DNA from: Escherichia coli
GTDB lineage: Bacteria; Pseudomonadota; Gammaproteobacteria; Enterobacterales; Enterobacteriaceae
DNA length: 64,000 nt
Assembly: GCF_024502345.1 (NCBI RefSeq)
Contig: NZ_JALDNN010000001.1
Reading direction: 5' to 3' (one strand)
Below the pieces are notes generated by a model. That model was not told the origin of the DNA. It did not search any database and saw only the letters and a list, made by a program, of their open reading frames with translations. This document shows, piece after piece, positions 19,153-64,000 of this stretch (the first letter of the stretch is position 1; each line of letters begins with the position of its first letter). A program made the position numbers and the translations under genes.

Positions 19153-19881
19153 TTATTGAAATTGCTCAAATATACCATGCAACCCAATAAATTTTATTTT
19201 TAGTGCAGGATCATGCCTTAGAACAGTCTCAAGTGAGTTCCGCTCATAAATTATTGATTGTGCTTGTATTGAGCCGTTCCATGAAGGCAAAAGCAGTAAA
19301 GCAGATGTTTCCAAATCAATACCCCACCAATCGTTAACATAGCAATTTAAAAAATCAACAAGAGCCTTAATCGCAATAAAAGCATCTTTTTCGGTATATG
19401 TTTCAGGATCGAGGGATATACCTGATATATTACTTTTAGCTTGCTCGGAATTAATATTAGACTGGTGTTGATAAGCAATTTTTCCTTCACCCGGTTTAGT
19501 TTCTATTGTATCAGTGAAAATTTTAATCTTAGGATGCACCAATGCATTTCGTTGTGCTATTAATTCTTTTATTATTTGTGTTTGAGTGGTTCCACGAGGT
19601 AAAGACATGTCTTTATGCCATTGAAGAGTATAGTCAAATTTATCAAGTGAAGAGAACCTGTCAATTTGATCTTTTAACTTTTGCGTTATTTCTATAGAAG
19701 ATAAAAATGAGTTAGCTGCAGCCTCAATAGCGTAGTTAATTGAAAGTACACTTGATTTGGCAAGTGTTTTTTTGATGTGTGATTTTTTTGTTGCAGCTGA
19801 TAATTCATAAAGAGTTATTGCATCAGAAAAAAGCTCAAAAAAGCTGTTCTTGGTTATTTCAACTTTTCTTTTCACACGCAA
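19153..19881 (-). CDS. hypothetical 242-aa protein with HEPN-like R-x4-H motif (ELIAQRNALVHP)
   Basis: Motif read from the translation; last gene of an AT-rich three-gene minus-strand cluster. Confidence 0.55.
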   Translation of the reverse strand: MRVKRKVEITKNSFFELFSDAITLYELSAATKKSHIKKTLAKSSVLSINYAIEAAANSFLSSIEITQKLKDQIDRFSSLDKFDYTLQWHKDMSLPRGTTQTQIIKELIAQRNALVHPKIKIFTDTIETKPGEGKIAYQHQSNINSEQAKSNISGISLDPETYTEKDAFIAIKALVDFLNCYVNDWWGIDLETSALLLLPSWNGSIQAQSIIYERNSLETVLRHDPALKIKFIGLHGIFEQFQ

Positions 19882-19965
19882 CCCTCTGCATAAAAAAATA
19901 AAATCATATAGACAGAATACAATTTCCTATAATCTTTATATTCTACTAATTGTGGATATAAATGG

Positions 19966-44811: not shown

Positions 44812-45050
44812 GAGGATATCCTTCAGCATAAATGTAATAGACAAAATGCAGTGTACCGGATACCGCCAAAAGCGAGAAGTACGGGCAGGTGCTATGACCA
44901 GGACTTTTTGACCTGAAGTGCGGATAAAAACAGCAACAATGTGAGCTTTGTTGTAATTATATTGTAAACACATTGCTAAATGTTTTTACATCCACTACAA
45001 CCATATCATCACAAGTGGTCAGACCTCCTACAAGTAAGGGGCTTTTCGTT

Positions 45051-47495
45051 ATGATGATTTTGAGTATTCTCGCTACGGTTGTCCTGCTCGGCGCGTTGTT
45101 CTATCACCGCGTGAGCTTATTTATCAGCAGTCTGATTTTGCTCGCCTGGACAGCCGCCCTCGGCGTTGCTGGTCTGTGGTCGGCGTGGGTACTGGTGCCT
45201 CTGGCCATTATCCTCGTGCCATTTAACTTTGCGCCTATGCGTAAGTCGATGATTTCCGCGCCGGTATTTCGTGGTTTCCGTAAGGTGATGCCGCCGATGT
45301 CGCGCACTGAGAAAGAAGCGATTGATGCGGGCACCACCTGGTGGGAGGGCGACTTGTTCCAGGGCAAGCCGGACTGGAAAAAGCTGCATAACTATCCGCA
45401 GCCGCGCCTGACCGCCGAAGAGCAAGCGTTTCTCGACGGCCCGGTAGAAGAAGCCTGCCGGATGGCGAATGATTTCCAGATTACTCATGAGCTGGCGGAT
45501 CTGCCGCCGGAGTTGTGGGCGTACCTTAAAGAGCATCGCTTCTTCGCGATGATTATCAAAAAAGAGTACGGCGGACTGGAGTTCTCAGCTTATGCCCAGT
45601 CTCGCGTGCTGCAAAAACTCTCCGGCGTGAGCGGGATCCTGGCGATTACCGTCGGCGTGCCGAACTCATTAGGCCCGGGCGAGCTGCTGCAACATTACGG
45701 CACTGACGAGCAGAAAGATCACTATCTGCCGCGTCTGGCGCGTGGTCAGGAGATCCCTTGCTTTGCACTGACAAGCCCGGAAGCGGGTTCCGATGCGGGC
45801 GCGATTCCGGACACCGGGATTGTCTGCATGGGCGAATGGCAGGGCCAGCAGGTGCTGGGGATGCGTCTGACCTGGAACAAACGCTATATTACGCTGGCAC
45901 CGATTGCGACTGTGCTTGGGCTGGCGTTTAAACTCTCCGACCCGGAAAAGCTGCTGGGTGGCGCAGAAGATTTAGGTATTACCTGTGCGCTGATCCCGAC
46001 CACCACGCCGGGCGTGGAAATTGGTCGTCGCCACTTCCCGCTGAACGTACCGTTCCAGAACGGACCGACGCGCGGTAAAGATGTCTTCGTACCGATCGAT
46101 TACATCATCGGTGGGCCGAAAATGGCCGGGCAAGGCTGGCGGATGCTGGTGGAGTGCCTCTCGGTAGGCCGCGGCATCACCCTGCCTTCCAACTCAACCG
46201 GCGGCGTGAAATCGGTAGCGCTGGCAACGGGCGCGTATGCTCACATTCGCCGTCAGTTCAAAATCTCTATCGGTAAGATGGAAGGGATTGAAGAGCCGCT
46301 GGCGCGTATTGCCGGTAATGCCTACGTGATGGATGCTGCGGCATCGCTGATTACCTACGGCATTATGCTCGGCGAAAAACCTGCCGTGCTGTCGGCTATC
46401 GTTAAGTATCACTGTACCCACCGCGGGCAGCAGTCGATTATTGATGCGATGGATATCACTGGTGGCAAAGGCATTATGCTCGGGCAAAGCAACTTCCTGG
46501 CGCGTGCTTACCAGGGCGCACCGATTGCCATCACCGTTGAAGGGGCTAACATTCTGACCCGCAGCATGATGATCTTCGGACAAGGAGCGATTCGTTGCCA
46601 TCCGTACGTGCTGGAAGAGATGGAAGCGGCGAAGAACAATGACGTCAACGCGTTCGATAAACTGTTGTTCAAACATATCGGTCACGTCGGTAGCAACAAA
46701 GTTCGCAGCTTCTGGCTGGGCCTGACGCGCGGTTTAACCAGCAGCACGCCAACCGGCGATGCCACTAAACGCTACTATCAGCACCTGAACCGCCTGAGCG
46801 CCAACCTCGCCCTGCTTTCTGATGTCTCGATGGCAGTGCTGGGCGGCAGCCTGAAACGTCGCGAGCGCATCTCGGCCCGTCTGGGGGATATTTTAAGCCA
46901 GCTCTACCTCGCCTCTGCCGTGCTGAAGCGTTATGACGACGAAGGCCGTAATGAAGCCGACCTGCCGCTGGTGCACTGGGGCGTACAAGATGCGCTGTAT
47001 CAGGCTGAACAGGCGATGGATGATTTACTGCAAAACTTCCCGAACCGCGTGGTTGCCGGGCTGCTGAATGTGGTGATCTTCCCGACCGGACGTCATTATC
47101 TGGCACCTTCTGACAAGCTGGATCATAAAGTGGCGAAGATTTTACAAGTGCCGAACGCCACCCGTTCCCGCATTGGTCGCGGTCAGTACCTGACGCCGAG
47201 CGAGCATAATCCGGTTGGCTTGCTGGAAGAGGCGCTGGTGGATGTGATTGCCGCCGACCCAATTCATCAGCGGATCTGTAAAGAGCTGGGTAAAAACCTG
47301 CCGTTTACCCGTCTGGATGAACTGGCGCACAACGCGCTGGCGAAGGGGCTGATTGATAAAGATGAAGCCGCTATTCTGGTGAAAGCTGAAGAAAGCCGTC
47401 TGCGCAGTATTAACGTTGATGACTTTGATCCGGAAGAGCTGGCGACGAAGCCGGTAAAGTTGCCGGAGAAAGTGCGGAAAGTTGAAGCCGCGTAA
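45051..47495 (+). CDS. fadE: acyl-CoA dehydrogenase FadE
   Basis: 814-aa ORF starting [21 protein letters not shown]... Confidence 0.95.
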
Positions 47496-47502
47496 TTGAA
47501 TA

Positions 47503-47530
47503 ACGGAGCCGAAAGGCTCCGTTTCTTTAT
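47503..47530 (+). terminator. rho-independent terminator ACGGAGCC-GAAA-GGCTCCGT followed by a T-tract
   Basis: Perfect 8-bp stem, GNRA-like loop, TTTCTTTAT tail. Confidence 0.8.
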
Positions 47531-47537
47531 CCGCTAA

Positions 47538-47984
47538 TTATTTAAAATTAAAGCCATCCGGATGGTTTTCCAGGCTGCCGGTCAACGCCGCGAACAGCAC
47601 CGTTTTACCATCAATCGAAAGCGCATCGTTCACATTCAGCCAGGTGAGTTTCTCTTGCGACGTTTTCTCATCAATAGTCGAGAACAGCCCCGTCATCTGA
47701 TTAGATTTCTCGGACCACATCACAGCGATACGTTGCGAGCCACAGTCATGCGGTTTGCACGCGCTCATCACCTGATACGTCTCATCTCCCAACGTTACGG
47801 TTTGTGCGGGAGTATAAGTACCGCCTTTCATCACCCAGGCAGGCAGCTTATGCCCTTGTACCATCTGATTAAATGCAGCTTTGGTGGTTTCGCCCTTTGC
47901 AAGGCTGCTAATGGTTAAATCATCCTGCGCCATTGCACTGGTGGCGATGACCAGAGCGGCGACTGTCGTTATTGCCTTAAACAT
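47538..47984 (-). CDS. ivy: inhibitor of vertebrate lysozyme Ivy
   Basis: MFKAITTVAALVIATSAMAQDD... signal peptide; CKPHDCG motif. Confidence 0.9.
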   Translation of the reverse strand: MFKAITTVAALVIATSAMAQDDLTISSLAKGETTKAAFNQMVQGHKLPAWVMKGGTYTPAQTVTLGDETYQVMSACKPHDCGSQRIAVMWSEKSNQMTGLFSTIDEKTSQEKLTWLNVNDALSIDGKTVLFAALTGSLENHPDGFNFK

Positions 47985-48164
47985 CATTCCTCCCGAGCTT
48001 ATCCTGCCCATGTTATTAACCTTCTAAAGCCTGGCGATAACACGATAATTTGCAAATCAGATATTTCCAATATCAGCATTTGTTATCAATTTATTCTGCG
48101 CTAAGGCAACTGCCTGATAAGGTGTTAAAGTTATAAAACCCTTCGCATAAAGGAGTTGTACACC

Positions 48165-48935
48165 GTGCCTGGTTTGAAGATTACGCTTTTGCAGCAACCA
48201 CTGGTGTGGATGGATGGCCCTGCCAACCTGCGTCATTTTGATCGTCAACTGGAAGGTATTACCGGGCGCGATGTGATCGTTCTACCGGAGATGTTTACCA
48301 GCGGCTTTGCCATGGAAGCGGCAGCTTCGTCGCTAGCACAAGATGACGTAGTGAACTGGATGACAGCTAAGGCGCAGCAGTGCAATGCGCTGATTGCAGG
48401 CAGTGTTGCATTACAAACGGAGTCTGGTTCGGTTAACCGCTTTTTGCTGGTTGAGCCGGGCGGCACGGTACATTTTTATGATAAGCGTCATCTGTTCCGC
48501 ATGGCAGATGAGCATCTACATTATAAAGCGGGCAATGCGCGAGTGATTGTGGAATGGCGCGGCTGGCGTATTTTGCCGTTGGTGTGCTACGACTTACGTT
48601 TTCCGGTGTGGTCGCGCAATCTCAACGATTATGACCTCGCCATCTACGTTGCCAACTGGCCTGCTCCGCGCTCTCTGCACTGGCAGGCATTGCTGACGGC
48701 CCGCGCGATTGAGAATCAGGCGTATGTGGCGGGATGCAATCGCGTCGGCAGCGATGGCAACGGCTGCCATTATCGCGGTGACAGCCGGGTGATTAATCCA
48801 CAAGGCGAGATTATCGCTACTGCCGACGCGCATCAGGCAACGCGCATTGATGCGGAGCTGTCGATGATGGCATTGCGGGAATATAGAGAAAAGTTTCCGG
48901 CATGGCAGGATGCGGATGAGTTTAGGTTGTGGTGA
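48165..48935 (+). CDS. yafV: nitrilase-superfamily omega-amidase YafV
   Basis: GTG start, [18 protein letters not shown]...; catalytic Cys in LVCYDLRFP. Confidence 0.9.
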
Positions 48936-48959
48936 GTGGGGGTTGTGTTTAAGGACGGG

Positions 48960-49140
48960 GAGAGTCGGGGTATTACTACGAAAGCCCGCTCTCCTGCGAC
49001 CACTTTTATCATAGGAGTGTGGAAGCGCTTTTCCATCAATTGCGATGACGTCTTTATCATTTGATGAATGGCAGTCACGCATCCAGTTAATAAAGCATTC
49101 GTGAAATTATACTGAACGGATACAAGACATAACTCTAATT
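48960..49140 (-). pseudogene. H-repeat (ISAs1-family transposase) fragment
   Basis: ...[29 protein letters not shown]... matches an internal segment of recalled Rhs H-repeat proteins. Confidence 0.6.
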
Positions 49141-49206
49141 ATGGTGTCGTGAACAGGATTACCATTTTCAAAATTACGATATTATTTGCAGTAATTATGT
49201 TATTAA

Positions 49207-49719
49207 TCATTGTGATATTTCCATCTCTGTGATTAATACCGGATAAGCATTTAATTGCAGAGTTTGCACGAAATTATCGCAGATAACTGGCAATAACAAT
49301 AACCCATCAGCCCGCTGCTGTAATACCTCCATTCGTTCTACTGATTCAACATTAACAACCAAACCAAGGGCATTTAGCGATTTAAGGATCTCCAGATGTT
49401 CACTCATCCAGCGCAGAGAAAAAGGATCATCCCCAATTATAAAAACAGCCCCCCAGCCGGTTAATAACTGGCGTTTCATTACAGAGCCAGGATGAAGTCG
49501 AGTACATATTACAGGAAATACCCCCTGTTGCGATGGTTCCGATGATGTGGATAATTCAGAAATATTTTCCATTGTTAGTGAAGAATTAACATCCATTAAT
49601 AATGGTGAAACAACCTCACTTTCCTTGCTAGTAATGGCTGCACTAATCTGAAAGGGAAATAACAATATTATTACGTATAAACTCATTTTTAACATAACAC
49701 ATTCAATCCGTTTATTCAT
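49207..49719 (-). CDS. hypothetical secreted protein (signal peptide), AT-rich
   Basis: ORF with N-terminal hydrophobic leader; bracketed by H-repeat remnants. Confidence 0.45.
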   Translation of the reverse strand: MNKRIECVMLKMSLYVIILLFPFQISAAITSKESEVVSPLLMDVNSSLTMENISELSTSSEPSQQGVFPVICTRLHPGSVMKRQLLTGWGAVFIIGDDPFSLRWMSEHLEILKSLNALGLVVNVESVERMEVLQQRADGLLLLPVICDNFVQTLQLNAYPVLITEMEISQ

Positions 49720-49785
49720 GTTATAGAATAATGATGCTATAAATCATCATTAATGTTCAATTATTTAATCACACAATTTGAAAAA

Positions 49786-50289
49786 TCATTGACCAATGTG
49801 AATTGGCAATGTACCACTCAAGTTAAAATCACTGAATATTTTATCAATTTCTCTTGCAGTTTCTATATATTTAACCTCTTTCGTACTTGCATTATAAATA
49901 GCCCAAGCCTCGGGATGGGATGTTCCACCAAACCTTACAAAAAAACTTGATTTCATATTATTATATAAATTAACATCAGGAAAAGGATCTTCTCCAAAAT
50001 TAGTAGTATTGAATAATGAAAGTTCGTATCGCTTAGAAAATTCTGTTGGTAGGATAGCTTCACTGCCATCAATAGCATTCATCCAGAGTTTGTTACCATT
50101 ATATTCCAACAATAATCTCTGTTTTGCATGTGTCTTATCTCGTTCTTTAACGACAGCGAATACCTTTTTAACAACTTGCTGTGCGGATGGTCCTATTGTA
50201 TTACCAAAAGCTGGCAACCCGATTTTGCCATAAACACTCTCCTGAATGAAATAAATATCCGTTTTATCGGCCTCGACAATATCTACCAT
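49786..50289 (-). CDS. hypothetical protein (167 aa), AT-rich
   Basis: ORF only; bracketed by H-repeat remnants. Confidence 0.45.
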   Translation of the reverse strand: MVDIVEADKTDIYFIQESVYGKIGLPAFGNTIGPSAQQVVKKVFAVVKERDKTHAKQRLLLEYNGNKLWMNAIDGSEAILPTEFSKRYELSLFNTTNFGEDPFPDVNLYNNMKSSFFVRFGGTSHPEAWAIYNASTKEVKYIETAREIDKIFSDFNLSGTLPIHIGQ

Positions 50290-50609
50290 TTATCCCTCCA
50301 AACAAGACCTGACTCCAGTACAAGAGCATAGTGTGTAGTAAACACTTCATGCTCTTGCCTTGACCATTGAAATAACAACTTTCGTTTGTTTACTGTACGC
50401 TGTCTAAATAGCTGCGTGGAATAAAGTTGCACTTTTTATCATCCCTTGCAGAGCAAGATTACGAAAGCCCGCCCCCGAAAGGACTGACGCGAGGTAGTCT
50501 CTGTCCGCAGCTGCTTTCACATCTTACATCTTGCCCCTGCCTTGAGTATCTTATCTTTCTTTGAAATATTAATAGCGATGTTCCGTATCCCTGAAAATAA
50601 TTCTGTTGC

Positions 50610-51100
50610 ATTTCATCTTCTTATTATAAAGTCGTCTTTATTCATTACCACGTCCAGATGCCAGTGCAATTTATTCTCCACTTGCCAGTGATTTCGGTTC
50701 GCTGTGGCGAACTTCTCTGCGGTTAAATCAGCAGAAATGCTATAATATCTGTCCGTCATTTCTGGCTCTTTCTTTTGTTCTGTTATTATTGAACGAAAGG
50801 AGACTGCCATGCATAATTTCTTCAGCCCTTTTCATTCAAACGTGAAATCAATAAGTTCATCAGGGACATCGCAAATAATATGAAGACGGATTTTAATGAC
50901 ATAAATCGCTCCCTTGCGGCGACTCTTGTCATAAGAGTGCCGAAGCGTTTTTCCATCAATTGCAATGACATCTTTATCATCTGAGGAATGGCAGTCACGC
51001 ATCCAGTTAATAAAGCACTCATGAAATTTTGCAGGACTGATACAGGATACAACTCTGGCAATGATATCGTGAACAGGAATACCATTTTCAAAATCACCAT
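50610..51100 (-). pseudogene. H-repeat (ISAs1-family) remnant, internally deleted
   Basis: C-terminal piece ...[58 protein letters not shown]... plus a second copy of the about 150-bp segment seen at 48990..49140. Confidence 0.65.
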
Positions 51101-53246
51101 ATCACTTCAAAAAATTGGGATGTGTTTCCCCAAATCATCTATATCTTCCCAGCCTTATGCACCAAAAATAACGGCGCAAATAGTTAACAGATAGAATATC
51201 TGGCAATTTATGTTCCACTTTCCAGGCTTGCCTGTAATCGGGGATAATAGAAATATGTTCCATCAATTTTTTAAGTTCCATTTTGTCCCCCTTAATTATG
51301 CAATGAGTATTTGATCATGTATAAGCAATGAAAAACAGCTTTAGGTAATAAGGAACACCTCAATTATTGAACATAAAATGCGAATTATTTAGTACAAAAA
51401 AAACAGCATTACGTGATTTTTCCCTGGGAGTACAGTGTGAAGTTTCCGGCATGGCGGGATGCGGATGGGTTTGAACTGGGGTGAATAGGCACTACATGTC
51501 TACATTTTCCCGGTCACCAACCCCTCAATCTTATGAACTTAACCTCGGCTCACCGTTTTCGATTCCATCCAATAAATGACCCGGTTGGATGTGGGCTGAT
51601 CGCCAACAACTTTGCCATCTGCAGAGATTAGCTTCAGCTCTTTATTAGCCTCATCACCGAAGTAAATCATGCGGTAGCGAAAATAACCGCCCCAGGGTTC
51701 ACGTCCACCCAGCGAACTTTGCATAAACCAGGCGCGGGAGTCGTGAACCTGGTCATCATAGAGGGCCAGTAATTCAGCGCATGGCTGAGTACGCGTTCCC
51801 GTTCCCAGTGAATCAATAAAAAATTGTGGATAGAGTCCGTCTCCCATAGCCTTAATTTGCTGATATTCTTTTGCTTCATCATCGCCATTAATCAGATACA
51901 CCGGATATTTAGGAATGACATCCACAAGAATCTGAATGGCTTTCTCCATGACGCTGCCGTTAATATCGCGCGTCCATCCTTTATAATCGCTCTGAAATTC
52001 TCGGGCTGCCTCTCGCAACTGATACTGAGCATTGGTTGGGTCAAGGATAGGAATGCCCTGATTACTTTCATCAAGTGTGCCATTCCCTTTCTGCTTGTTC
52101 GCCCGCTCTTTTTCAATATTTTCCATTTGTTCTTTACGCGCTTTAGCCTCTTTATCAAGTCCATCTTTATCCAGCTGTGGCGCCTTAATATAAAAAGGTT
52201 GCACAAGAAGGCTGTTATTCGCATAGCGACCGATACGCCAGGCGGTGATCCAGCCGATCTGATCGCTAATTGCGCTTTCAAGAACCTGGGCAAGTTGATA
52301 GGAGTGATAACCTTCCCTCGTATCAATCATTTCTTCTGTACCCTGCAAGGTGGTGTTCAGCAGCGTTTGTCGCCAGATGTTGAAGCGTTTTGTTAATGAA
52401 TTAGCAATCGTAAATTCCTTTACGCTAGAAGGACTCATAATTCGCAGAGGCGACACACCTTTTATTAATGGAGTAACAAATTTAGAATAAACAGCAAGTG
52501 GTGCTCCTGAATCAAATGCAGCAAGATACATATCATGCAGTGCTATCTGAGAAAGAATTTCGCCTGAGTCACCACAGGACTTCCCCTGATCGCGAACGGG
52601 ATAGCCACCACCGACATCAGAGTGCATCCCCGGATAGATAATTTCCGTCTGGACGACGGATTGAATCCAGCGGAAAGCACAGCCGCTGCTCATGCGCGGC
52701 AACGAAGTGGCGGCAGCATTTAATCAGGCCGGGAAACTGCCTCTCATCAGGGAGTTGCTGAGTACTATCGGCCCATCCCATATGACCGGCAGCGCCCGGT
52801 AAAACATGCGCCGCCCCCACAGAAGCTACGGTATCCAGCAGCCCCAAAAACTCAATACTGACAGCTAACCCGGCCAGCATCACCTGTTGCTCCTGCGGGC
52901 AAGCTAACTGAGTCAACCAGTTAACAAAAGTTCGTGCTTCCGCTGCGCCACGGGAAAATCCGTAGATAAACAGCTTTACGTTTAGCAGGCGCGGACTGGC
53001 TTGCTCTAACAGTCCCTGTAATTTTTCCAGGTAGGGGTTAATCACATTGCGACGATTCACTTCACCAGTCATAGGCCAGGGAGCGCGCATAAGAGGAATG
53101 TGCTCTTTTGCCACATTATCATCCAGTCGCTTATGGGAAGGGTCAATGGAATAGTTCAGGGCATCCACGAGGCGTAATAATGCCCAATTAATTCGATCTT
53201 CACCACCAGTAGCGAACTCCAGCCCGCTGTTGCTGTAATCCATTTC

Positions 53247-54303
53247 GGCTTTGTTGAATAAATCGAACTTTTGCTGAGTTGAAGGATCAGATCACGTATC
53301 TTCCCGACAACGCAGACCGTTCCGTGGCAAAGCAAAAGTTCAAAATCACCAACTGGCCCACCTACAATAAAGCCCTCATCAACCGTGGCTCCATAACTTT
53401 CTGGCTGGATGATGAAGCTATTCAGGCCTGGTATGAGTCAGCAACACCTTCTTCACGAGGCAGACCTCAGCGCTATTCTGACCTTGCCATCACGACTGTG
53501 CTGGTCATTAAACGCGTATTCAGGCTGACCCTGCGCGCTGCGCAGGGCTTTATTGATTCCATTTTTTCTCTGATGAACGTTCCGCTACGCTGCCCGGATT
53601 ACAGCTGTGTCAGCAGGCGGGCAAAGTCGGTTAATGTCAGTTTCAAAACGCCCACCCGGGGTGAAATCGCACACCTGGTAATTGATTCCACCGGGCTGAA
53701 GGTCTTCGGTGAAGGCGAGTGGAAAGTCAAAAAGCATGGCCAGGAACGCCGCCGTATCTGGCGTAAGCTGCATCTCGCCGTTGACAGTAAAACACATGAA
53801 ATCATCTGCGCTGACCTGTCGCTGAACAACGTTACGGACTCAGAGGCCTTCCCCGGGTTAATCCGGCAAACCCACCGGAAAATCAGGTCAGCCGCCGCCG
53901 ATGGCGCTTACGATACCCGGCTATGTCACGATGAACTGCGGCGTAAGAAAATCAGCGCGCTTATCCCTCCCCGAAAAGGTGCGGGTTACTGGCCCGGTGA
54001 ATATGCAGACCGTAACCGTGCAGTGGCTAATCAGCGAATGACCGGGAGTAATGCGCGGTGGAAATGGACAACAGATTACAACCGTCGCTCGATAGCGGAA
54101 ACGGCGATGTACCGGGTAAAACAGCTGTTCGGGGGTTCACTGACACTGCGTGACTACGATGGTCAGGTTGCAGAGGCTATGGCCCTGGTACGAGCGCTGA
54201 ACAAAATGACGAAAGCAGGTATGCCTGAAAGCGTGCGTATTGCCTGAAAACACAACCCGCTACGGGGGAGACTTACCCGAAATCTGATTTATTCAACAAA
54301 GCC
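53247..54303 (+). mobile_element. IS903-group element copy C, 9-bp TSD ATCCATTTC
   Basis: Terminal IRs at 53247..53264 and 54286..54303; ATCCATTTC at 53238..53246 and 54304..54312. Confidence 0.92.
53279..54247 (+). CDS. IS903-group transposase (322 aa), identical to copies A and B
   Basis: Identical translation. Confidence 0.9.
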   Translation: MKDQITYLPDNADRSVAKQKFKITNWPTYNKALINRGSITFWLDDEAIQAWYESATPSSRGRPQRYSDLAITTVLVIKRVFRLTLRAAQGFIDSIFSLMNVPLRCPDYSCVSRRAKSVNVSFKTPTRGEIAHLVIDSTGLKVFGEGEWKVKKHGQERRRIWRKLHLAVDSKTHEIICADLSLNNVTDSEAFPGLIRQTHRKIRSAAADGAYDTRLCHDELRRKKISALIPPRKGAGYWPGEYADRNRAVANQRMTGSNARWKWTTDYNRRSIAETAMYRVKQLFGGSLTLRDYDGQVAEAMALVRALNKMTKAGMPESVRIA

Positions 54304-54659
54304 ATCCATTTCACCTATCTTGGGAAATGGTGTGCCTACACCCGGTATATAGTAGTTAAAATATCCCTGTTCTTCTGCGTTCTGATAGGTCGTATGAAAC
54401 AGTTTGGCAATATTGGTTGGGTGTCCAGGAGTGTCATTATATTCATTATTATTTGTACCATCAAAAAACAGACTAATATGCAGACTTTGATTACACGTAA
54501 AGCCAATTCTAAATCCAGCCTGTTTACTACAGTTGGTTTTGTGCTCTTCTGTTTTATTGATTTGTTTTAGGTAGTTCGCGTTTACCTGCGCTTCAGATAA
54601 TATTAATCGCCCATCTTCAGGGAACAACGGGGGGGCATAACACGGAAAAGCCAGACCAC

Positions 54660-55202
54660 TTATTTTGCTGGACATGTTGCAGGTTCCTTCATCTCGCGGG
54701 GTTCTTTGATAGGATAATTCGGTGTGCCATAGCCCTCGCAGACGGTTGTCACTTTAATCTGATTACACGGCAGAAAATGAACGGTCAGGCCACAACGTTC
54801 AGCGCCGTATTCCGGGATGTCAACAATTACTTTATATTTTTGATAATTTGCAGCATGTTTAGCATAAGCATCTTCTTCATAGCCAAAACCTTCTTTTTTC
54901 ATTGCAATAGGTTCAAGGGGGTTCGGGTCTACTTCCCACTCGATCCGGGCTTTTAATCCAGAATGCCACTTCTTTGGTAACATTATGCAGCAATATCCAC
55001 CGCCCAAACCATGGACCCGATAACCATTTACGGTGAACCAATTAATACTGATACCTTTAATATGATTTATTGCCCGGAGATCACCAGCAGTATAATCGTC
55101 GTAATTAGCTGCTGAGCAACCCGAAATCACCATCAAAATTAACACCAGACAGCCTTTAACTACTTTTGTTATATTCATTCCATTTCTTATTTTGCTGGAC
55201 AT
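54660..55202 (-). CDS. putative lipoprotein (lipobox ISGCSA), possibly effector-associated (immunity or chaperone-like)
   Basis: Signal peptide with lipobox Cys; immediately upstream of the Tle1-like gene; shares the MSSKI start and about 20 bp with it. Confidence 0.45.
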   Translation of the reverse strand: MSSKIRNGMNITKVVKGCLVLILMVISGCSAANYDDYTAGDLRAINHIKGISINWFTVNGYRVHGLGGGYCCIMLPKKWHSGLKARIEWEVDPNPLEPIAMKKEGFGYEEDAYAKHAANYQKYKVIVDIPEYGAERCGLTVHFLPCNQIKVTTVCEGYGTPNYPIKEPREMKEPATCPAK

Positions 55203-56138
55203 GTTGCTGGTTCTTTTACTTTGAGAGATTTTAATTGATGGGTATTGTTTCTACGACAATAAAGTTTTGACAAAGAAGCAAATAAAATGCATATCTTTCG
55301 ATTGTCACACATTGGAATATCGACAGAGCATTGATGATATTACGCAAAATATATTGCAGCCAAGTGAACTGACATTACGATCGAACACAAATGCAACATG
55401 ATGGATACTACCATTACATGTCGAGCTTGATTTTCCGTTTATTTCACGATTATCTCTTGATATTAACAGCTACGGACTTTTAAACAGATAAATCTCCCCG
55501 TACATCACCACAATATTATCCTTCGAAGTCCCGCAAAGCTCCGAAATATTTCGCGTCATTGGCCCTGAAAGCAATATCAAGACAGTGGGCAAAATAGCTT
55601 TCCTGACTGAGTTCACTGTGGGATGCAAATAAAGTTTCATCCTAACCCTAAAAACAGAGAGAAACGTCGCGCGCTCTCCTATTCATAAAAAATCCCTTTT
55701 ATATCAGTATGTTGTGAGCACTTACACCCGAGACTGGATCGTTTTGCCTTTCATGGGAGAATGATTAAGGGCGCTAAAGTATCATCCTAATTTTCGCCCA
55801 GGCTCGAAAAATACGGTAAATGGTGAAAATAAAGATTCATCCTTTTCCGATGTTGCCCGTTCCAACACGTAAGCAGTCAGTCAGAAAAAACACATAGATC
55901 CAATCCCTAGCGAGCATTGAGCTCTCTCATCCGTGCCAACTGCTCCAACCCTTGGACGCCCTAAATGCTTACCCAAAAAAATCAACACCTTCTTTTAAAA
56001 ACACAATCAAAAATGACACCCTTATATCCATTTAACCTAAACAGCCTTCCCCCCACTGCACTAGCTAGGGCTCGTAGTTCGGCGCAAGGCTGAAGTCGCT
56101 TGGCTGCTTCGCTGTGCAGATCCATGACCCACTTTCCA

Positions 56139-57302
56139 TCAAACTCCCGGTTGTAGTTCCACAAGCATCTCGCGAGTCTTGCCGGCCCGCTCCACTAACA
56201 AGACCACAACATCTCCAACGTTCTTGTCGTCTAGCCGGGCCTGTAATGTGGTGACGTCGTCGACGGCGATACCGTCGATGCTGATAACGCGATCGCCGGG
56301 CACGATGCCGCCTGCGGTGACCTCGACGCCGACGAGCCCGGCCCTGTGCGCCGCCGAGCCCGGCGTCACGCGCAATACGAATACGCCCTTACTGCCGGTC
56401 AGCGCCTGCAGACGCGCGTTGAGCTGCTCATCCACCTCGATGCCCAGCGCCGGACGGATGTACTTGCCGGTCTTTATGAGTTGCGGCACCACGCGCATGA
56501 CGGTATCGACCGGCACCGCAAAGCCGATGCCGGCCGAGGCGCCAGACGGACTGTAGATGGCGGTATTGATGCCGATCAGCCGCCCAGCCGAATCGAGCAG
56601 CGGGCCACCGGAATTGCCGGGGTTGATAGCGGCGTCGGTCTGGATCAGGTGGTCAATGGCCGGGCCACTGGCGTCGCCGGAAAGGGTGCGGTCAAGCGCC
56701 GAGACGATGCCGGTGGTGAGCGTCCAGTCGAGCCCGAAGGGATTGCCAATGGCAAAGACCTTTTGCCCCACCTTGAGATCGGCACTGGTGCCCACCGGCA
56801 CCGCCGGCGGGCGCTTGAAGCCGACGCCAATCTTGAGTACCGCGATGTCGTGCGCAGGACTAGCGCCAACGAGCGCAGCCTGATAATCGCGACCGTCGGC
56901 CAGTTTGACCGTGGCAGACGATGCCCCCTGGATCACGTGGAAGTTGGTCACCACGTGGCCGGCATCGTCCCAGATGAAGCCGGAGCCGGTGCCGCGCGGC
57001 ACGGAAAAGACATTGCGCGACCAGACGTGACGCACTAGTTGTGCCGTGGTGATGTAAACCACCGACCCGCGCGATTTCTCGAACAGCTCGATGGTGGTTT
57101 TTTCGTCGGCGGCCAGGTCGCCGCGCGGCGTCACCGTGCGCTCCTGCGTTTCGTGGGGACTGAACCAGGCTTCGATGGCGGGCAGGAACTGCCACAGCAG
57201 CATGAGTGCGGCGATGCAGCCAGTGATGACGAGCCAGCGCCGGATGAAGCGGTCCGGCGCCGGGCGGCTGTAGGGGTCGGGGTAGGTCACGTCATTCTCC
57301 AT
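56139..57302 (-). CDS. HtrA/DegP-family serine protease with PDZ domain (high-GC)
   Basis: Trypsin-like motifs ...TNFHVI..., ...GNSGGPL...; C-terminal PDZ-like region. Confidence 0.8.
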   Translation of the reverse strand: MENDVTYPDPYSRPAPDRFIRRWLVITGCIAALMLLWQFLPAIEAWFSPHETQERTVTPRGDLAADEKTTIELFEKSRGSVVYITTAQLVRHVWSRNVFSVPRGTGSGFIWDDAGHVVTNFHVIQGASSATVKLADGRDYQAALVGASPAHDIAVLKIGVGFKRPPAVPVGTSADLKVGQKVFAIGNPFGLDWTLTTGIVSALDRTLSGDASGPAIDHLIQTDAAINPGNSGGPLLDSAGRLIGINTAIYSPSGASAGIGFAVPVDTVMRVVPQLIKTGKYIRPALGIEVDEQLNARLQALTGSKGVFVLRVTPGSAAHRAGLVGVEVTAGGIVPGDRVISIDGIAVDDVTTLQARLDDKNVGDVVVLLVERAGKTREMLVELQPGV

Positions 57303-57309
57303 GTTGAAA

Positions 57310-58299
57310 TCAGCGCCAAAGGCCGCCGGTGCGCCAGCGTGGCGGACGTGGTGATACGGTCACCTCGGGGACGAAACGGGCCGATGGAAACGGCGGCATC
57401 GCGGGCGGCGGAGCAAGTTCCAGCAAGCGCTCAATGCGTTCAGCCGTCGCCGGATGCGTGCGCAACCAGGAGGGTTCCGGATTGCCCCATCCGGGCAGCA
57501 GCCAGGCGCGCCAGGAGCGGCTCACCCGCTCGATCTTGGCGAGCGCCGAGGCCAGCCCGTGCGGGTCGCCGGTCAATTCGGCAGCGAGCCGGTCGGCGTC
57601 GAATTCGCGCACCCTGGACAAGCCCAACTGAGCCAGCAAGGCCAGCTGTGGCGCGACCGCCAGTAGAAGCAACGCGGGCCAATTGACTTCCGCGACTCCA
57701 AGCAGCAGCGCTGGCAAGCTGAGCACGATCGCAAGCTGCCCCAGCAGGGCCAGCAGATGGGTCAGCCGGCTGATGGAATCGGCCAGGCCCATGACACGCA
57801 AATCCTCGTTCGCAATATGCGCGATTTCGTGGCCGAGCACGCCGGTCAACTCGCGGGGCGTGAGGCTACGCAGCAGGCCGTCGGTCAGCGCGATGGCCGC
57901 GTGATGCTTCGAACCGGTGGCGAAGGCGTTGACGACCCCGCTGGGCACGTAGTGCGGTACCGGCACGGCAGGCAGCCCGGCCCGCGCCGCCAGTTCGCGC
58001 AACACAGCCCAAAGATCGGGCGCTTCATCCGGGTACAGGGGGCGTGCGCCATACAGCCGCAAGGTCAGTCCGGAGGCGGCCGCCGGTTCGAGCAGCAGGG
58101 TGAACCCCGCGGCCGCAAGCGCCAGCCACAGCCCGCCGTCACCCAACAGCAGGCTGCCAGCGACGGCGGCAATCCCGAGCAGGGTCAGCACCAACAGCGC
58201 GGTTTGCAGGCGATTGAGCCAGCGATGCCGCGCGCCGACATCCTGCGCGTGGCGCAGATCACGACTGATCATCTGAGCGTTCCCCGGCGGTCCGGTCAT
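57310..58299 (-). CDS. M48-family zinc metalloprotease (HtpX-like)
   Basis: HEIAH zinc-binding motif in GHEIAHIANED; TM segments. Confidence 0.75.
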   Translation of the reverse strand: MTGPPGNAQMISRDLRHAQDVGARHRWLNRLQTALLVLTLLGIAAVAGSLLLGDGGLWLALAAAGFTLLLEPAAASGLTLRLYGARPLYPDEAPDLWAVLRELAARAGLPAVPVPHYVPSGVVNAFATGSKHHAAIALTDGLLRSLTPRELTGVLGHEIAHIANEDLRVMGLADSISRLTHLLALLGQLAIVLSLPALLLGVAEVNWPALLLLAVAPQLALLAQLGLSRVREFDADRLAAELTGDPHGLASALAKIERVSRSWRAWLLPGWGNPEPSWLRTHPATAERIERLLELAPPPAMPPFPSARFVPEVTVSPRPPRWRTGGLWR

Positions 58300-58762
58300 C
58301 GCGCTCGCGCAGCAGCCAGTAAGTCACCCCGAGCGCCAGCGTAGCACCTGCGAGCGCGGCGATCTTGCCGGGGCTCGCCTCGGGGTCGAGGATCACGAAC
58401 TTGCGCGCCAGCGCGATCAGGCCGATGAGGATCACCGTCTTGACCTGGATGATGCTGTCCCGACGCAGCGCCACGCGCACGATGGAATGCTTGAATTCCA
58501 TGGCGATGAGCAGCGTCATGATCATGGCGAACACGGTCTGGAAGACCTTGTGATCAAGCGGATTGAACGCGTCGAGGATCAGCAGCGTGAAGACAATGGA
58601 CATGAGCTGGAGCAGCGACACCACGATGATCACGGCGATCACCGCAGACAGCACGAGCGCGATGACCTGCTCGAAGCGCTCGTAGAACGTCATCACGGCC
58701 CATTGGGCGCGAAAAGTTTTCGTCAGCGTAGGTTGCTTTTCATTCATCGCCATTTCCCTCAA
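58259..58762 (-). CDS. PsiE-like phosphate-starvation-inducible membrane protein (start uncertain)
   Basis: Small polytopic membrane protein resembling PsiE. Confidence 0.55.
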   Translation of the reverse strand: MREMAMNEKQPTLTKTFRAQWAVMTFYERFEQVIALVLSAVIAVIIVVSLLQLMSIVFTLLILDAFNPLDHKVFQTVFAMIMTLLIAMEFKHSIVRVALRRDSIIQVKTVILIGLIALARKFVILDPEASPGKIAALAGATLALGVTYWLLRERDDRTAGERSDDQS

Positions 58763-59610
58763 TTTACATTGGCAACCATAACTTGGTTGCGCCCTTGTCT
58801 TTTTGCCTGGTAGAGCGCGCTGTCCGCCTGCTGCATCACCTGCTCGGAAGAGTTTAAGCGGACGTCGAGGGGAGCCACCCCCATGCTGGCGCTATAGCTG
58901 ATCGACACCTCTCCACACACCAGCGCTGTCGCCGCAACGTCCTGACGAAATCGCTCCGCCCATACTTGGGCGTCTTCTATCGATGCCGCTTCCAACAACA
59001 CAGCGAATTCCTCCCCCCCCCCAATCCGTGCAGCCATGTCGGTTGCGCGAACATGTTCCCTCAACCGTGAAGCAAAGTGCTTGAGCACCTCATCGCCGCA
59101 TCCGTGCCCATAGGTATCATTGATGCGCTTGAAGTGATCGATATCGCAGAGCACAAGTGCTGCTTGTATCTCCGGGCTGCGTTTGAGGCGCGCCCATTCC
59201 AGCTGTAATCGTTCGTTAAAAGCCCGCCGGTTCGACAAGCCGGTCAAGGGGTCGGTGATCGCCATGCGCAGCAACCGCTGCTCCATTTCCTTGCGAGAAG
59301 AGATGTCGAGCAGAGTGCCCACCATCAATTGCCTGCCCGTGTCACCCAGCCAACGACCGCGATCCAGCACCCAAATCCAAACGCCGGATCGATGACGAAC
59401 GCGGTACTCGCACTCCAATCGCTCCGACGGATTTTCTTGGTAAGCGCGCACCTTTGCCAGAACGACCGGTAAATCCTCCGGATGAATACGCGCTTGCCAT
59501 GCGGCATGGGTGGCGCCAATCTCCTCGTCGGAGGTCAAGCCGAACATCGCCAGACTGCGGGCAGAAAGCCTGAAGCTGTCGGTGGCAAGATCCCACTCCC
59601 AGAATCCCAA
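58759..59610 (-). CDS. PAS-GGDEF diguanylate cyclase
   Basis: GGEEF active-site motif (RIGGGEEF) and N-terminal PAS-like region. Confidence 0.8.
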   Translation of the reverse strand: MGFWEWDLATDSFRLSARSLAMFGLTSDEEIGATHAAWQARIHPEDLPVVLAKVRAYQENPSERLECEYRVRHRSGVWIWVLDRGRWLGDTGRQLMVGTLLDISSRKEMEQRLLRMAITDPLTGLSNRRAFNERLQLEWARLKRSPEIQAALVLCDIDHFKRINDTYGHGCGDEVLKHFASRLREHVRATDMAARIGGGEEFAVLLEAASIEDAQVWAERFRQDVAATALVCGEVSISYSASMGVAPLDVRLNSSEQVMQQADSALYQAKRQGRNQVMVANVN

Positions 59611-59779
59611 CTCTGCGCCTTCCAGGGCGATGGCGATCCGTTCGTTGTCGTCGATTTTCGCTTGTTGGCGATGCTTCAGCTCGTCACGCCTGTGGCGATT
59701 GGTACGAGCAAAACGCCATAACGCAACCCCATGCCAACATTGGCAAGTAGCGACACCATCAGCCAGATGGTCGGCCCGT

Positions 59780-61498
59780 TCATGGTCTATCCCCGCCTGA
59801 CTGACTGAGTGCCTGCCGTAATTCCTCGATCCGGTGGTCGACTTGGTCGGCGTTGATGCCCAACATCAACAGTACCTGCTCGGCCAGTCCCAGTCCCGCA
59901 GCCAGGTACAACGGGTACAGTCTGACATTGGGCAGATTACGCAAAAGCTGGGCATCCGTTACGCGCTCAGTGGCCACCACCACGGACAAGCTCAGGCGGC
60001 GGTCGAGAACCGCCTGAGCGATACGCAGGGCCGTCTGCGGACGGGCAAACGTCAGCACCACCAGGCGGGCATGGGCCAATCCGGCGGCGGCCAGGGTGTC
60101 GAGCCGACTGGCATCGCCATACGACACCGGCGCCCCCATAGCACGCCCCGCTTCGACCCGTTGGCGGTCCGATTCCAGCAGCAAATGCGGTATGCCTGCC
60201 AGGCGCAGCGTTCGGCTCAGCAGCAGCCCGACGTCATCCGCCCCACAGATGATCACATGGTCGCGCAACGACCGCGCCCGCTCGGCGACTTCGCCTTCTT
60301 CGGCCTGCGGTGGCTGACCGAGTGCGCCCGAGCGGCTGAAAGCCCGCGCCCATCGGTCATGGTGTCGGATCAGGAGCGGTGCCAACCCCATGCTCAACAC
60401 CAGCGCCACCAGCATCGGTTGCACCATGGTGGCGGCGATCAGGTGCTGCTGCATGACCATGCCCAGGAGCAGCAGCGCAAACTCGCCGCCATGACCCAGC
60501 ACGATGCCTGCGCGCCAGGCGTCGAGCGCCGACAGGCGGGTTGCGCGCAGCGCCAGAAAGTTCAGCCCCATCTTGAGAGGCACCAAGGCCAACAGCCAAC
60601 CCAGTACCGCCAGCGGTGCGGCCACGATCTGCGCGGTGTCCAGCTGCAGGCCAATGGTCACGAAGAACAGGCCCGACAGCACATCACGAAAGGGCTTGAG
60701 GTGGCTTTCCATGTGGTGCCGGAAGTCGCTCTCGCCCAGGACCATGCCGGCGAGAAAGGCCCCCAGGGCGGCGGATACGCCGACGGCGTGTGCAGCAGCG
60801 GCTGCCGCCACGACCACGCACAAGGAGACCAGCACGAAGGATTCTTCGTGGCCCTGCCGCGCCACCCAGCCCAGCAGGCCATGCAACAGACGACGCGAGG
60901 CAACCGCCGCTGCCGCGAACAACACCAGCACGCCCAACACTTCGAGCAGCACGCTCTCGATCTTCGGCGAGTCGCCGCGCGCCCAGATCGCCAGCAGGGC
61001 CAGCAGGGGCACGCTGGCCAGGTCCTGAAAGACCAGCACGGCGATGGCACTGCGGCCGTGGCGGGTGGTGAGCTCGCCTTGGTCGGCCAGCTGTCGGCTG
61101 ACCAGCGCCGTGGACGACATGGCCGCTGCGGCGCCGAGCAGTGCAGCGCTCTGAGCTGGCTGACCCAACCCGATCAGCACCAGGGTCAGTGGCGCGGCCA
61201 CGACGACCATCTGCAAGCTGCCGGACGCCAGTACGGTCTTGCGAGTGAGCCAGAAGTGCCCCAGCGAGAATTCCAGTCCGACCATGAACAGCAGCAGGGC
61301 CACACCCAGTTCGGATATGAAAGTCAACGCCTCTCCCGGCGCGATCACACCGCTGACCGAGGGGCCCAGCAAGGCGCCGACGGCGAGGTAACCCAGCAAG
61401 GCGGGTACTCTGAACGCCGCCGTCGCCACCACCGAGAGGCTGCACGCCGCCAGCAGGATCAGGGTAGTGCCGAGCAAATCCTGCGGATTCCACGCCAT
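59780..61498 (-). CDS. CPA2-family monovalent cation:proton antiporter with C-terminal RCK/TrkA-N domain (KefB/KefC-like)
   Basis: 12-TM N-terminal domain plus Rossmann-like ...VIICGADDVG... Confidence 0.8.
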   Translation of the reverse strand: MAWNPQDLLGTTLILLAACSLSVVATAAFRVPALLGYLAVGALLGPSVSGVIAPGEALTFISELGVALLLFMVGLEFSLGHFWLTRKTVLASGSLQMVVVAAPLTLVLIGLGQPAQSAALLGAAAAMSSTALVSRQLADQGELTTRHGRSAIAVLVFQDLASVPLLALLAIWARGDSPKIESVLLEVLGVLVLFAAAAVASRRLLHGLLGWVARQGHEESFVLVSLCVVVAAAAAAHAVGVSAALGAFLAGMVLGESDFRHHMESHLKPFRDVLSGLFFVTIGLQLDTAQIVAAPLAVLGWLLALVPLKMGLNFLALRATRLSALDAWRAGIVLGHGGEFALLLLGMVMQQHLIAATMVQPMLVALVLSMGLAPLLIRHHDRWARAFSRSGALGQPPQAEEGEVAERARSLRDHVIICGADDVGLLLSRTLRLAGIPHLLLESDRQRVEAGRAMGAPVSYGDASRLDTLAAAGLAHARLVVLTFARPQTALRIAQAVLDRRLSLSVVVATERVTDAQLLRNLPNVRLYPLYLAAGLGLAEQVLLMLGINADQVDHRIEELRQALSQSGGDRP

Positions 61499-61586
61499 TC
61501 GGACACTCAGCCCACGCTGATCCGGACACCTGTTCCACGGCCATTCGGACAGGCAGTCGGAGCGCAGCGACGCAGGGGTTGCATTG

Positions 61587-62342
61587 TTAGTCTGAGGTGC
61601 CCGGTGTCGTCAATTTCTTCACCCGCTTTCTCATCGATTCGCCCTTGAGGTTGATCCGATAAGCGTTGTGCACCAGGCGGTCGAGGATGGCATCGGCCAG
61701 GGTTGGATCGCCGATCAGTTCGTGCCAGTTGTCCACGGGCATTTGGCTGGTCACGAGGGTCGAGCGCTGGCCGTAGCGGTCGTCCAGTAGCTCCAGCATG
61801 TCGCGGCGCTGTTCGGCGGTGAACGGCGCCAGGCCCCAGTCGTCGAGGATCAGCAGGTCGGTCTTGGCGTAGCTGCTCATCAGCTTGGCGAAGCGCCCGT
61901 CGCCGTGGGCTAGGCCCAACTCTTCCAACAGGCGCGGCAAGCGCAGGTAACGCACGCTGTAGCCCTCTCGGCAGGCCTGGTGTGCCAGGGCGCAGGCCAG
62001 CCAGGTTTTACCCACGCCAGTCGGACCGTTGATGATCAGGTTGAGTCCGTCGCGCAGCCACTGGCCGCTACCCAGTTGCAGGATCAAGCCCTTGTCCAGC
62101 CCGCGCGGGGCACGGTAGTCGATGTCTTCGAGGCAGGCGCTGTGCTTGAGCCGGGCCTGGCGCAGGCGGCTGCTGAGGCGCTTGTCGTCGCGTTCGGTCA
62201 GTTCGCGGTCGACCAGCAGGCCGAGGCGTTCCACGAAGCTCAAGCTGTCGATGTCCGGGGTTTTCAGTTGCTCGGCGAGTGCCTTGAGCATGCCGGTCAG
62301 GCGCAGGGTCTGGAGCTTGTCCAGGGTCGGATGGGGCAGCAT
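61587..62342 (-). CDS. istB: IS21-family helper ATPase IstB
   Basis: Walker A NGPTGVGKT; start taken at MLPHPTLDKL. Confidence 0.85.
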   Translation of the reverse strand: MLPHPTLDKLQTLRLTGMLKALAEQLKTPDIDSLSFVERLGLLVDRELTERDDKRLSSRLRQARLKHSACLEDIDYRAPRGLDKGLILQLGSGQWLRDGLNLIINGPTGVGKTWLACALAHQACREGYSVRYLRLPRLLEELGLAHGDGRFAKLMSSYAKTDLLILDDWGLAPFTAEQRRDMLELLDDRYGQRSTLVTSQMPVDNWHELIGDPTLADAILDRLVHNAYRINLKGESMRKRVKKLTTPGTSD

Positions 62343-62359
62343 GGTGGGATTCCTTGTGT

Positions 62360-63889: not shown

Positions 63890-64000
63890 GACGACCTCTC
63901 TGCTTCGAAAAAGAGGTCGATGGTAGTGAATAAATCCTGCGTAGCTGCCTGCCTGGAAAGTGTCCGGATGGCCGTGGAATCGGTGTCCGGATGCTCGTGG

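Follow-up and report, generated by a model that had tools for sequence, protein, structure and literature searches.

In Pseudomonas aeruginosa, Tle1, a type VI secretion system (T6SS) effector, is loaded on VgrG4a via the DUF4123 adaptor Tla1, Tli1a is an outer-membrane lipoprotein, and DUF3304 lipoproteins are Tle1 immunity proteins in several species (JBC 2026, PMC13133936). The vgrG4a island of this bacterium encodes VgrG4a (PA3294), Tla1 (PA3293), the DUF3304 proteins Tli1b and Tli1a (PA3292 and PA3291, respectively), and Tle1 (PA3290; PDB entry 4O5P). A second described pair is Tle1/Tli1 of the Sci-1 cluster of enteroaggregative Escherichia coli (EAEC) strain 042 (EC042_4534; PDB entries 6SJL and 6SKI), in which Tle1 is likewise a T6SS cargo of the VgrG spike with a lipoprotein immunity protein. 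According to the literature, a T6SS island is located at aspV in EDL933, LF82, and most B2 strains of extraintestinal pathogenic E. coli, beside the site considered here. The present analysis concerns a tle1-like lipase gene and an adjoining tli1 immunity gene downstream of yafV in a stretch of 64,000 nt of E. coli DNA (contig NZ_JALDNN010000001.1 of the assembly GCF_024502345.1; hereafter, the window). This locus is very probably the distal, effector-carrying end of the yafV-adjacent T6SS cluster found in a minority of E. coli, in which the effector gene was pseudogenised and the immunity gene was kept.

The tle1 pseudogene as a whole occupies positions 51539-54675 on the minus strand and shows DUF2235/Tle1 homology split by the insertion sequence IS903. 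BLAST comparison with two orthologous loci indicated that the 3' part at 51539-53246 (ancestral codons 122-697) and the 5' part at 54304-54675 (codons 1-124), both on the minus strand, make up a single 2094-bp gene interrupted at 53247-54303. The intact ortholog of this gene matches P. aeruginosa Tle1 PA3290 (4O5P) over residues 11-677, which is near full length, with E = 2e-117; a second solved Tle1 was matched with E = 6e-51, and EAEC Tle1 (6SJL) with E = 8.7e-07 in the catalytic core alone. The PF09994 profile (T6SS_Tle1-like_cat, DUF2235) is matched by the intact ortholog with 90.6 bits against a cutoff of 27, and three fragments from the window match the corresponding parts of this profile. 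The score for PF22137 (T6SS_Tle1-like_C, the C-terminal membrane-anchoring module) is 200-203 bits. The predicted catalytic triad consists of Ser219 of the GFSRG motif (52953-52955), Asp259 of LLDTV (52833-52835), and His337 of GMHSDVGGG (52622-52624), which align with S197, D245, and H310 of EAEC Tle1, the latter residue numbers being taken from the published text. An earlier inspection of the letters without database searches (hereafter, the sequence-only reading) had proposed a Tle1-like DUF2235 lipase with a GxSxG motif, and this proposal is borne out by PF09994, PF22137, 4O5P, and the GFSRG motif; membership in a non-effector hydrolase family, which that reading had named as the result that would speak against it, does not agree with the full-length Tle1 homology seen in the PDB and Pfam comparisons. 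Judged by these matches, the lipase gene is a genuine T6SS Tle1-family effector gene and is now the pseudogene of a family member.

Two lesions were found in tle1. The first one is a copy of IS903 (IS903B-like, IS5 family; copy C) of 1057 bp, located at 53247-54303 on the plus strand and inserted after codon 124. This copy has 18-bp perfect terminal inverted repeats and is flanked by a 9-bp target duplication, ATCCATTTC, at 53238-53246 and 54304-54312. Its transposase matches NF033579 with 357 bits, and near-identical copies are called IS903B in RefSeq. The three IS903 copies of the window, at 6065-7121 (+), 17334-18390 (-), and 53247-54303 (+), are 100% identical over 1057 bp, and a separate, perfect target duplication of 9 bp flanks each of them (TCTCAAAAG, CCTTATCCC, and ATCCATTTC, respectively), which points to a recent burst of independent insertions. 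A composite transposon made of copies A and B was considered as well and rejected, since every copy has its own target duplication. In the reference collection, which comprises 5426 complete RefSeq E. coli genomes, this IS903 insertion was found in no genome (0/5426).

At 52636/52637 (codon 325) lies the second lesion: 23 bp are deleted, and the deletion fits exactly between two 10-bp direct repeats (GGAAATTATC on the coding strand). It shifts the reading frame between the catalytic Asp and His, so that Ser and Asp are parted from His. With IS903 after codon 124 and the 23-bp deletion, tle1 in the window lacks the intact reading frame of a functional Tle1. In silico repair, in which IS903 and one copy of the target duplication were removed and the 23 nt were restored, resulted in an uninterrupted open reading frame (ORF) of 697 codons, and the repaired protein of 697 aa differs from that of PapRG-04-4, the closest relative, in only three residues. 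Since the repaired product is so close to the PapRG-04-4 protein, both lesions are probably recent. IS903 copy C and a frameshift had both been recognised in the lipase gene from the letters alone, and both are there; as for the suspicion that the frameshift was a sequencing error, a repeat-mediated deletion of the slippage type is unlike a homopolymer miscall, and IS903 kills the gene anyway.

The adjoining gene, tli1 (54660-55202, minus strand), is intact and encodes a lipoprotein of 180 aa that belongs to the DUF3304/Tli1a immunity family. Its product matches PF11745 with E = 1.3e-24 and 86.9 bits against a cutoff of 22, as well as NF053804 (Tli1a_fam) with 201.6 bits against a cutoff of 110, and differs from its orthologs in 2 aa. 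A putative lipoprotein signal, MSSKIRNGMNITKVVKGCLVLILMVISG/CSAAN, was recognised by eye; it has a basic n-region, a hydrophobic core, the lipobox VISG/C, and Ser rather than Asp at position +2. Searches of PHROGs and PADLOC gave no match for Tli. By homology, tli1 is a Tli1a-type lipoprotein immunity gene that adjoins its cognate tle1, and Tle1 neutralisation is known for its homologs described in the literature.

The starts of tli1 and tle1 share 22 bp exactly (GCAACATGTCCAGCAAAATAAG) and 31 nt with 94% identity, at a spacing of 527 nt. The sequence-only reading was right that the lipoprotein gene shares five codons and about 20 bp with the lipase gene; this is no oddity of two unrelated genes, as it is a stop/start overlap that recurs at each tli copy. 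In one frame, the shared run encodes the C-terminus of Tli (...EPATCPAK-stop), and in another frame it encodes Met-Ser-Ser-Lys-Ile; the tle1 start codon is located inside the last tli codons, with 16 nt common to the end of tli and the beginning of tle1. A copy of the junction between the tli 3' end and the start of the next gene (...KEPATCPAK-stop over ATG-TCC-AGC-AAA-ATA) is located at 55186-55216 on the minus strand and is repeated at 54659-54689. Owing to the overlap, any gene after a tli copy starts inside the final codons of that copy. The NC101 genome contains three tandem tli genes, of which copies 1 and 2 are only ~60% identical overall yet share the C-terminal junction, and its annotated coordinates give a 16-nt overlap at the following tli junction too. 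Since the junction is kept at the NC101 tli copies, the shared run delimits the tli unit that was duplicated in tandem and was copied along with it. In the window, the tli array consists of one copy; ~415 bp of native DNA upstream of it is intact, and a terminator scan of the DNA upstream of tli found none.

Comparison with other E. coli genomes indicates where this module belongs. The DNA identity between the window and the orthologous island loci is 96.7-99.4%. In NC101, the genes tssB, tssC, tssE, tssF, tssG, tagH and others are followed by hcp, tssI/vgrG, the DUF4123 gene, three DUF3304 tli genes, and the gene of the Tle1-like effector; after tle1, the island continues with an ISAs1 pseudogene, ORF-B (annotated as hypothetical), ORF-A (annotated as 'ICE protein'), an ISAs1 fragment, and yafV. 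The order of vgrG, DUF4123, duplicated tli, and tle1 in this ortholog of the locus is that of the P. aeruginosa vgrG4a island, and the locus in the window is a decayed member of this kind of module. As compared with PA3290, the effector homology is full-length and includes PF22137, and the immunity gene also belongs to the DUF3304/Tli1a family; moreover, one tli copy of the array tends to decay both in P. aeruginosa (PA3292) and in NC101 (the third copy). Unlike the P. aeruginosa island, the window contains an effector pseudogene, 33 codons of the adaptor, one tli, and no vgrG, and the E. coli Tle1 is 697 aa long versus 884 aa for the P. aeruginosa chain. With EAEC 042 Tle1, the effector shares the DUF2235 core, GxSxG, and an alignable Ser-Asp-His triad; however, the similarity is distant and limited to the core, and the EAEC pair belongs to another T6SS cluster, EAEC Tli1 being a DUF2931 protein and EAEC Tle1 binding the TTR domain of VgrG1 directly, without a DUF4123 adaptor.

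The aspV-associated T6SS island (PAI I of LF82; the 37-kb island of EDL933; NC101) occupies the same site by yafV-ivy-fadE as the locus does. Unlike this island, the window contains only its last ~6.6 kb, and the tle1/tli1a cargo allele is rare; it was found in 70 of the 5426 genomes and was always chromosomal. This carriage indicates that Tle1-armed competitors exist and are uncommon. In K-12, the gap between yafV and aspV contains no T6SS, and the DNA corresponding to 48994-50460 of the window is missing as well. In RefSeq, near-identical intact alleles are already annotated as Tle1-like effector and Tli1a immunity protein, and the main finding is therefore already known.

The DNA homology to the NC101 and PapRG-04-4 islands ends at 55617, which is the true right-hand edge of the feature in place of the edge first drawn at 55202. 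The last 33 codons of the Tla1-like DUF4123 adaptor gene are located at 55519-55617 on the minus strand (tblastn of the NC101 adaptor: residues 222-254, 97% identity). Positions 55618-64000 are the end of tLST, a locus of heat resistance, with 100% identity over 8384 bp to that of E. coli G3/10. In the window, tLST takes the place of the remaining T6SS island; it encodes there an S1C protease, an HtpX-like protease, PsiE, a GGDEF protein, and a KefB-like antiporter, with an IS21 element inside; in G3/10, the same block runs on into trx-GI, yfdX1, hsp20-GI, and clpK, and only the protease/KefB end of tLST falls in the window. More than 10 genomes with differing flanks all start matching at 55615-55617, and none of them spans the junction; since many unrelated flanks start at the same base, position 55618 is the true terminus of tLST. 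The junction of tLST with the T6SS island was found in 0 of the 5426 genomes. Using the NC101 proteins Hcp, VgrG, and TssB/C/E/F/G as tblastn queries, no match was obtained in the entire 64-kb window. The linkage of tle1 to vgrG and the adaptor gene is seen in the orthologous loci; only the 33 adaptor codons are left in the window, and no vgrG was found there.

The following history would account for this arrangement. The ancestral order would have been the T6SS core, hcp, vgrG, the DUF4123 adaptor gene, tli1 (in one to three tandem copies), tle1, the ISAs1-flanked two-gene block, and yafV. Tle1 would have served as a phospholipase acting in the periplasm and loaded on the VgrG spike via the adaptor, and Tli1 as a lipoprotein that neutralises incoming Tle1. 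Three probably recent events have disarmed the system, namely, the insertion of IS903 into tle1 after codon 124, the slippage-type deletion of 23 bp that put the catalytic His out of frame with Ser and Asp, and the arrival of the tLST terminus within the adaptor gene, which takes vgrG, hcp, and the core genes out of this neighbourhood. Since tle1 is dead and the adaptor gene is truncated, while tli1 and ~415 bp upstream of it are intact, the likely function of the locus is now defensive only, and tli1 would act as an orphan immunity gene against Tle1 from competitors with an intact system.

Orphan T6SS immunity genes, which are kept without the cognate effector, have been described in Vibrio and Bacteroidales. 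The locus resembles them in that an intact immunity gene lies beside a dead effector gene and the delivery genes are missing locally. Unlike in the described cases, the dead effector gene is still present and nearly undiverged, which indicates an early stage of orphaning.

Several points weigh against the interpretation of the locus as a disarmed T6SS island end with a surviving immunity gene. Expression of tli1 to this day and the protection given by it are presumed, and the promoter scan upstream of tli was uninformative, with 6 promoter-like sites versus 4.0 +/- 1.9 in shuffles. The putative membership of the cluster in the 'T6SS2' class is likewise drawn from the literature. In addition, the rest of the T6SS cluster might persist ~15-20 kb away, past tLST, in which case the word 'orphan' would be too strong.

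The latter point leads to an alternative that deserves serious weight, although we give it somewhat less than an even chance: tLST may simply have inserted near the end of the adaptor gene, on its 3' side, while the 5' part of this gene, vgrG, hcp, and the core genes lie intact beyond tLST and only the Tle1 arm is disabled. With such a simple insertion, the machine could still fire other effectors. The coincidence of the junction 55617/55618 with a conserved tLST terminus, which more than 10 genomes share although their flanks are unrelated, favours a clean insertion rather than a random deletion breakpoint. On the other hand, tLST occupies this position in none of the other complete E. coli genomes, nothing is visible past 64000, and, as PapRG-04-4 shows, a degraded upstream part often accompanies this island end. 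In PapRG-04-4 (15532-21131), the tle1-tli end comes after a DUF4123 gene that is truncated, a fragment of vgrG, and an orphan PAAR-VgrG-M35 peptidase module. This is the same island end in a different state of decay.

The DNA between yafV and tle1 bears on a different view of the locus. ISAs1 (H-repeat) transposase fragment 1 is located at 48987-49196 on the minus strand and comprises ~65 codons of the N-terminal DDE_Tnp_1-associated region with an internal stop. ISAs1 transposase pseudogene 2 is located at 50460-51281 on the same strand (the left end is approximate); its N- and C-terminal parts are kept, its DDE core is deleted, and it contains stops and frameshifts. The two share a 210-nt direct repeat with 81% identity; the DNA identity of fragment 1 to 50907-51116 is 81-83%. 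The conceptual translation of pseudogene 2 matches PF13808 (E = 2.5e-15, 56.8 bits) and PF01609 (E = 3.8e-06, 27.2 bits), and fragment 1 shows a weak match to PF13808 with 20.4 bits, which is under the gathering score. K-12 yafF matches 50460-50736, within pseudogene 2. RefSeq labels both fragments as ISAs1 pseudogenes in orthologous loci, where the first is annotated as a partial transposase; in NC101, the second is annotated as a frameshifted ISAs1 gene. Hence the two decayed H-repeat fragments around two AT-rich ORFs, as the sequence-only reading had described them, are indeed present at 48987-49196 and ~50460-51281. According to the sequence matches, both are members of the ISAs1 family, and both are decayed and non-functional.

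The 3' end of yafV recurs in degenerate form at 51426-51489 on the plus strand. This second copy is a 64-nt direct repeat of 48877-48940 with 78% identity and a core of 31/33 identical positions, and it matches the 3' end of K-12 yafV too. This repeat brackets the whole ISAs1-ORF-A-ORF-B-ISAs1 block, which indicates that the block was inserted separately beside tle1 and is outside the tle1 module. The block, 2.5 kb long, thus has the look of an insertion of its own that separates yafV from the T6SS island end.

The sequence-only reading had regarded the locus as a degraded Rhs/VgrG-type effector island standing on its own. One part of this view holds, since the locus contains a degraded T6SS effector gene that is no longer linked to vgrG or core genes within the window; the Rhs part does not, as no ORF with Rhs or YD repeats was found among the ORFs of 46000-58000, among the Pfam matches of the region, or in the annotated orthologous loci. 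The stronger form of the same view, in which a free-standing orphan island of the Rhs/VgrG type was assembled by H-repeat (ISAs1) activity, is improbable. It has in its favour that H-repeats historically go with Rhs elements and that the tle1-tli end in PapRG-04-4 lies beside the orphan PAAR-VgrG-M35 peptidase module, with no core genes in the stretch compared. However, apart from the lack of Rhs or YD-repeat ORFs, the block forms one continuous stretch with a complete T6SS cluster in NC101 and ~30 other genomes, and the ISAs1 fragments flank ORF-A and ORF-B rather than tle1, within a block that is separately bracketed by the duplicated yafV 3' end. The H-repeats here are plain ISAs1 remnants, and instead of a free-standing island, the locus is in all probability the conserved distal tip of the aspV-yafV T6SS cluster (intact in NC101), truncated at 55617/55618 by tLST. 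As for the idea that the lesions are assembly artefacts and the real tle1 is intact and functional, three identical IS903 copies in 64 kb are repeats able to confuse assemblers, but each copy has the target duplication that real transposition gives and the 23-bp deletion between 10-bp repeats bears the signature of replication slippage rather than that of a homopolymer miscall, which leaves this idea hardly any credit.

ORF-A (49207-49719, minus strand; 38% GC) belongs to the DUF2859/PFL_4695 family of 'integrating conjugative element (ICE) proteins', with E = 6e-28 for PF11072 and 119.4 bits against a cutoff of 59.75 for TIGR03765. With the RefSeq start at 49695, its product is 162 aa long, apparently intact, and different from the PapRG-04-4 ortholog in 2 aa. 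Its N-terminus contains a hydrophobic segment resembling a signal peptide. The AlphaFold2 model of ORF-A, built from a shallow alignment of 8 sequences, has a pLDDT of 40.6 and is unusable, and PHROGs and PADLOC gave no match for this protein. ORF-B (49786-50289, minus strand; 35% GC) encodes an intact protein of 167 aa without a signal peptide, identical to the NC101 copy. It represents an uncharacterised family, and no family membership was found for it in Pfam, NCBIfam, PHROGs, or PADLOC. A comparison of the ORF-B family profile with PDB sequences gave matches at the chance level only (E ~0.36), and a Pfam search with all 23 members of the ORF-B family found nothing meaningful. As possible K-12 counterparts of ORF-A and ORF-B, the genes ykfM and yafU were examined and rejected, as they show no DNA similarity and K-12 simply lacks 48994-50460.

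The genomic context was analysed for ~11 homologs of ORF-B. Wherever the downstream sequence was recovered, a gene encoding 135-180 aa follows close behind or overlaps, forming a cassette of two or three genes. The partner of the ORF-B homolog is a membrane protein with four transmembrane segments in the loci L006, L008, L012, and L015, and in L005 the four-transmembrane neighbour is convergent; a DUF805 gene sometimes comes next. A three-gene cassette consisting of the ORF-B homolog, a four-transmembrane protein of ~150 aa, and a DUF805 membrane protein was observed in L006 (8001-9380), L012 (3452-4926), and L016 (5443-6796), in unrelated housekeeping neighbourhoods of different bacteria.

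Two of the loci are linked to T6SS genes. In L005, the ORF-B homolog directly follows an orphan hcp, and in L015, a metagenome contig, it lies inside a complete T6SS cluster, right after tssB-tssC and among genes resembling those of effectors and immunity proteins. The region 6001-11062 of L015, between tssC and tagJ/tssE, which is the position of hcp in H1-type clusters, contains a 5-kb run of small ORFs. This run includes the ORF-B homolog, the four-transmembrane protein, several signal-peptide proteins, and a 126-aa Cys/His protein resembling a small amidase effector. Hcp was not detected by Pfam in 12.6 kb of L015.

Both E. coli variants of ORF-B are located at the aspV-yafV T6SS island end and are paired with the DUF2859 ORF-A. 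The divergence of the two variants is similar for both genes, with 68% identity for ORF-B and 73% for ORF-A. Tentatively, and with considerable doubt, ORF-A and ORF-B may be an uncharacterised small T6SS effector-immunity pair rather than junk or ICE debris, in which ORF-B would be the toxin and ORF-A its periplasmic immunity protein. If so, an unnamed family of toxins whose fold is unmatched would have ORF-B, possibly an Hcp cargo, as its founding member in E. coli. This assumption is countered by the lack of PAAR, Rhs, or Hcp fusions among the ORF-B homologs analysed, by the location of most of their cassettes away from T6SS genes, and by the partner family in E. coli, which is unlike that of other bacteria.

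As for the setting, the window is an E. coli-type chromosome, and fadE (44973-47495, plus strand), ivy (47538-48011, minus strand), and yafV (48156-48935, plus strand) lie upstream of the feature. The GC content is 54% in yafV (~55% across yafV and fadE), falls to 30-42% over 49000-51400, and reaches 63-70% from ~56000 on. An Rfam scan of 47500-57000 gave no match. In the core genes (the region from fadE to proA), even the best match in the reference collection reaches only ~98% identity, and the arrangement of the whole window is reproduced in none of its genomes (0/5426), indicating that the source strain has no close representative in that collection. Positions 1-24000 are a large accessory region matching a rare island, at least 80% of which is covered in only 3 complete genomes. 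The annotated genes of this island encode a SIR2-family protein, a GTPase, an inovirus Gp2-family protein, and WYL/HTH regulators, and the region is possibly a defence island; two of the three IS903 copies of the window are located in it.

Taken as a whole, the locus is a case of ordinary genome decay and not a new system, and the main finding opens no new question. ORF-B is the only part of the locus with some novelty and the only one that might repay bench work; if its proposed role is true, it would add a T6SS toxin without a recognisable fold and with two unrelated kinds of partner proteins. The presence of a heat-resistance island (tLST) inside a T6SS island illustrates two accessory islands competing for one chromosomal site. 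The locus itself, which is of local interest, represents a strain in which IS903 and a slippage deletion have recently put the lipase arm of the T6SS out of action and the immunity gene has survived, and it provides a snapshot of an effector-immunity module turning into an orphan immunity gene.

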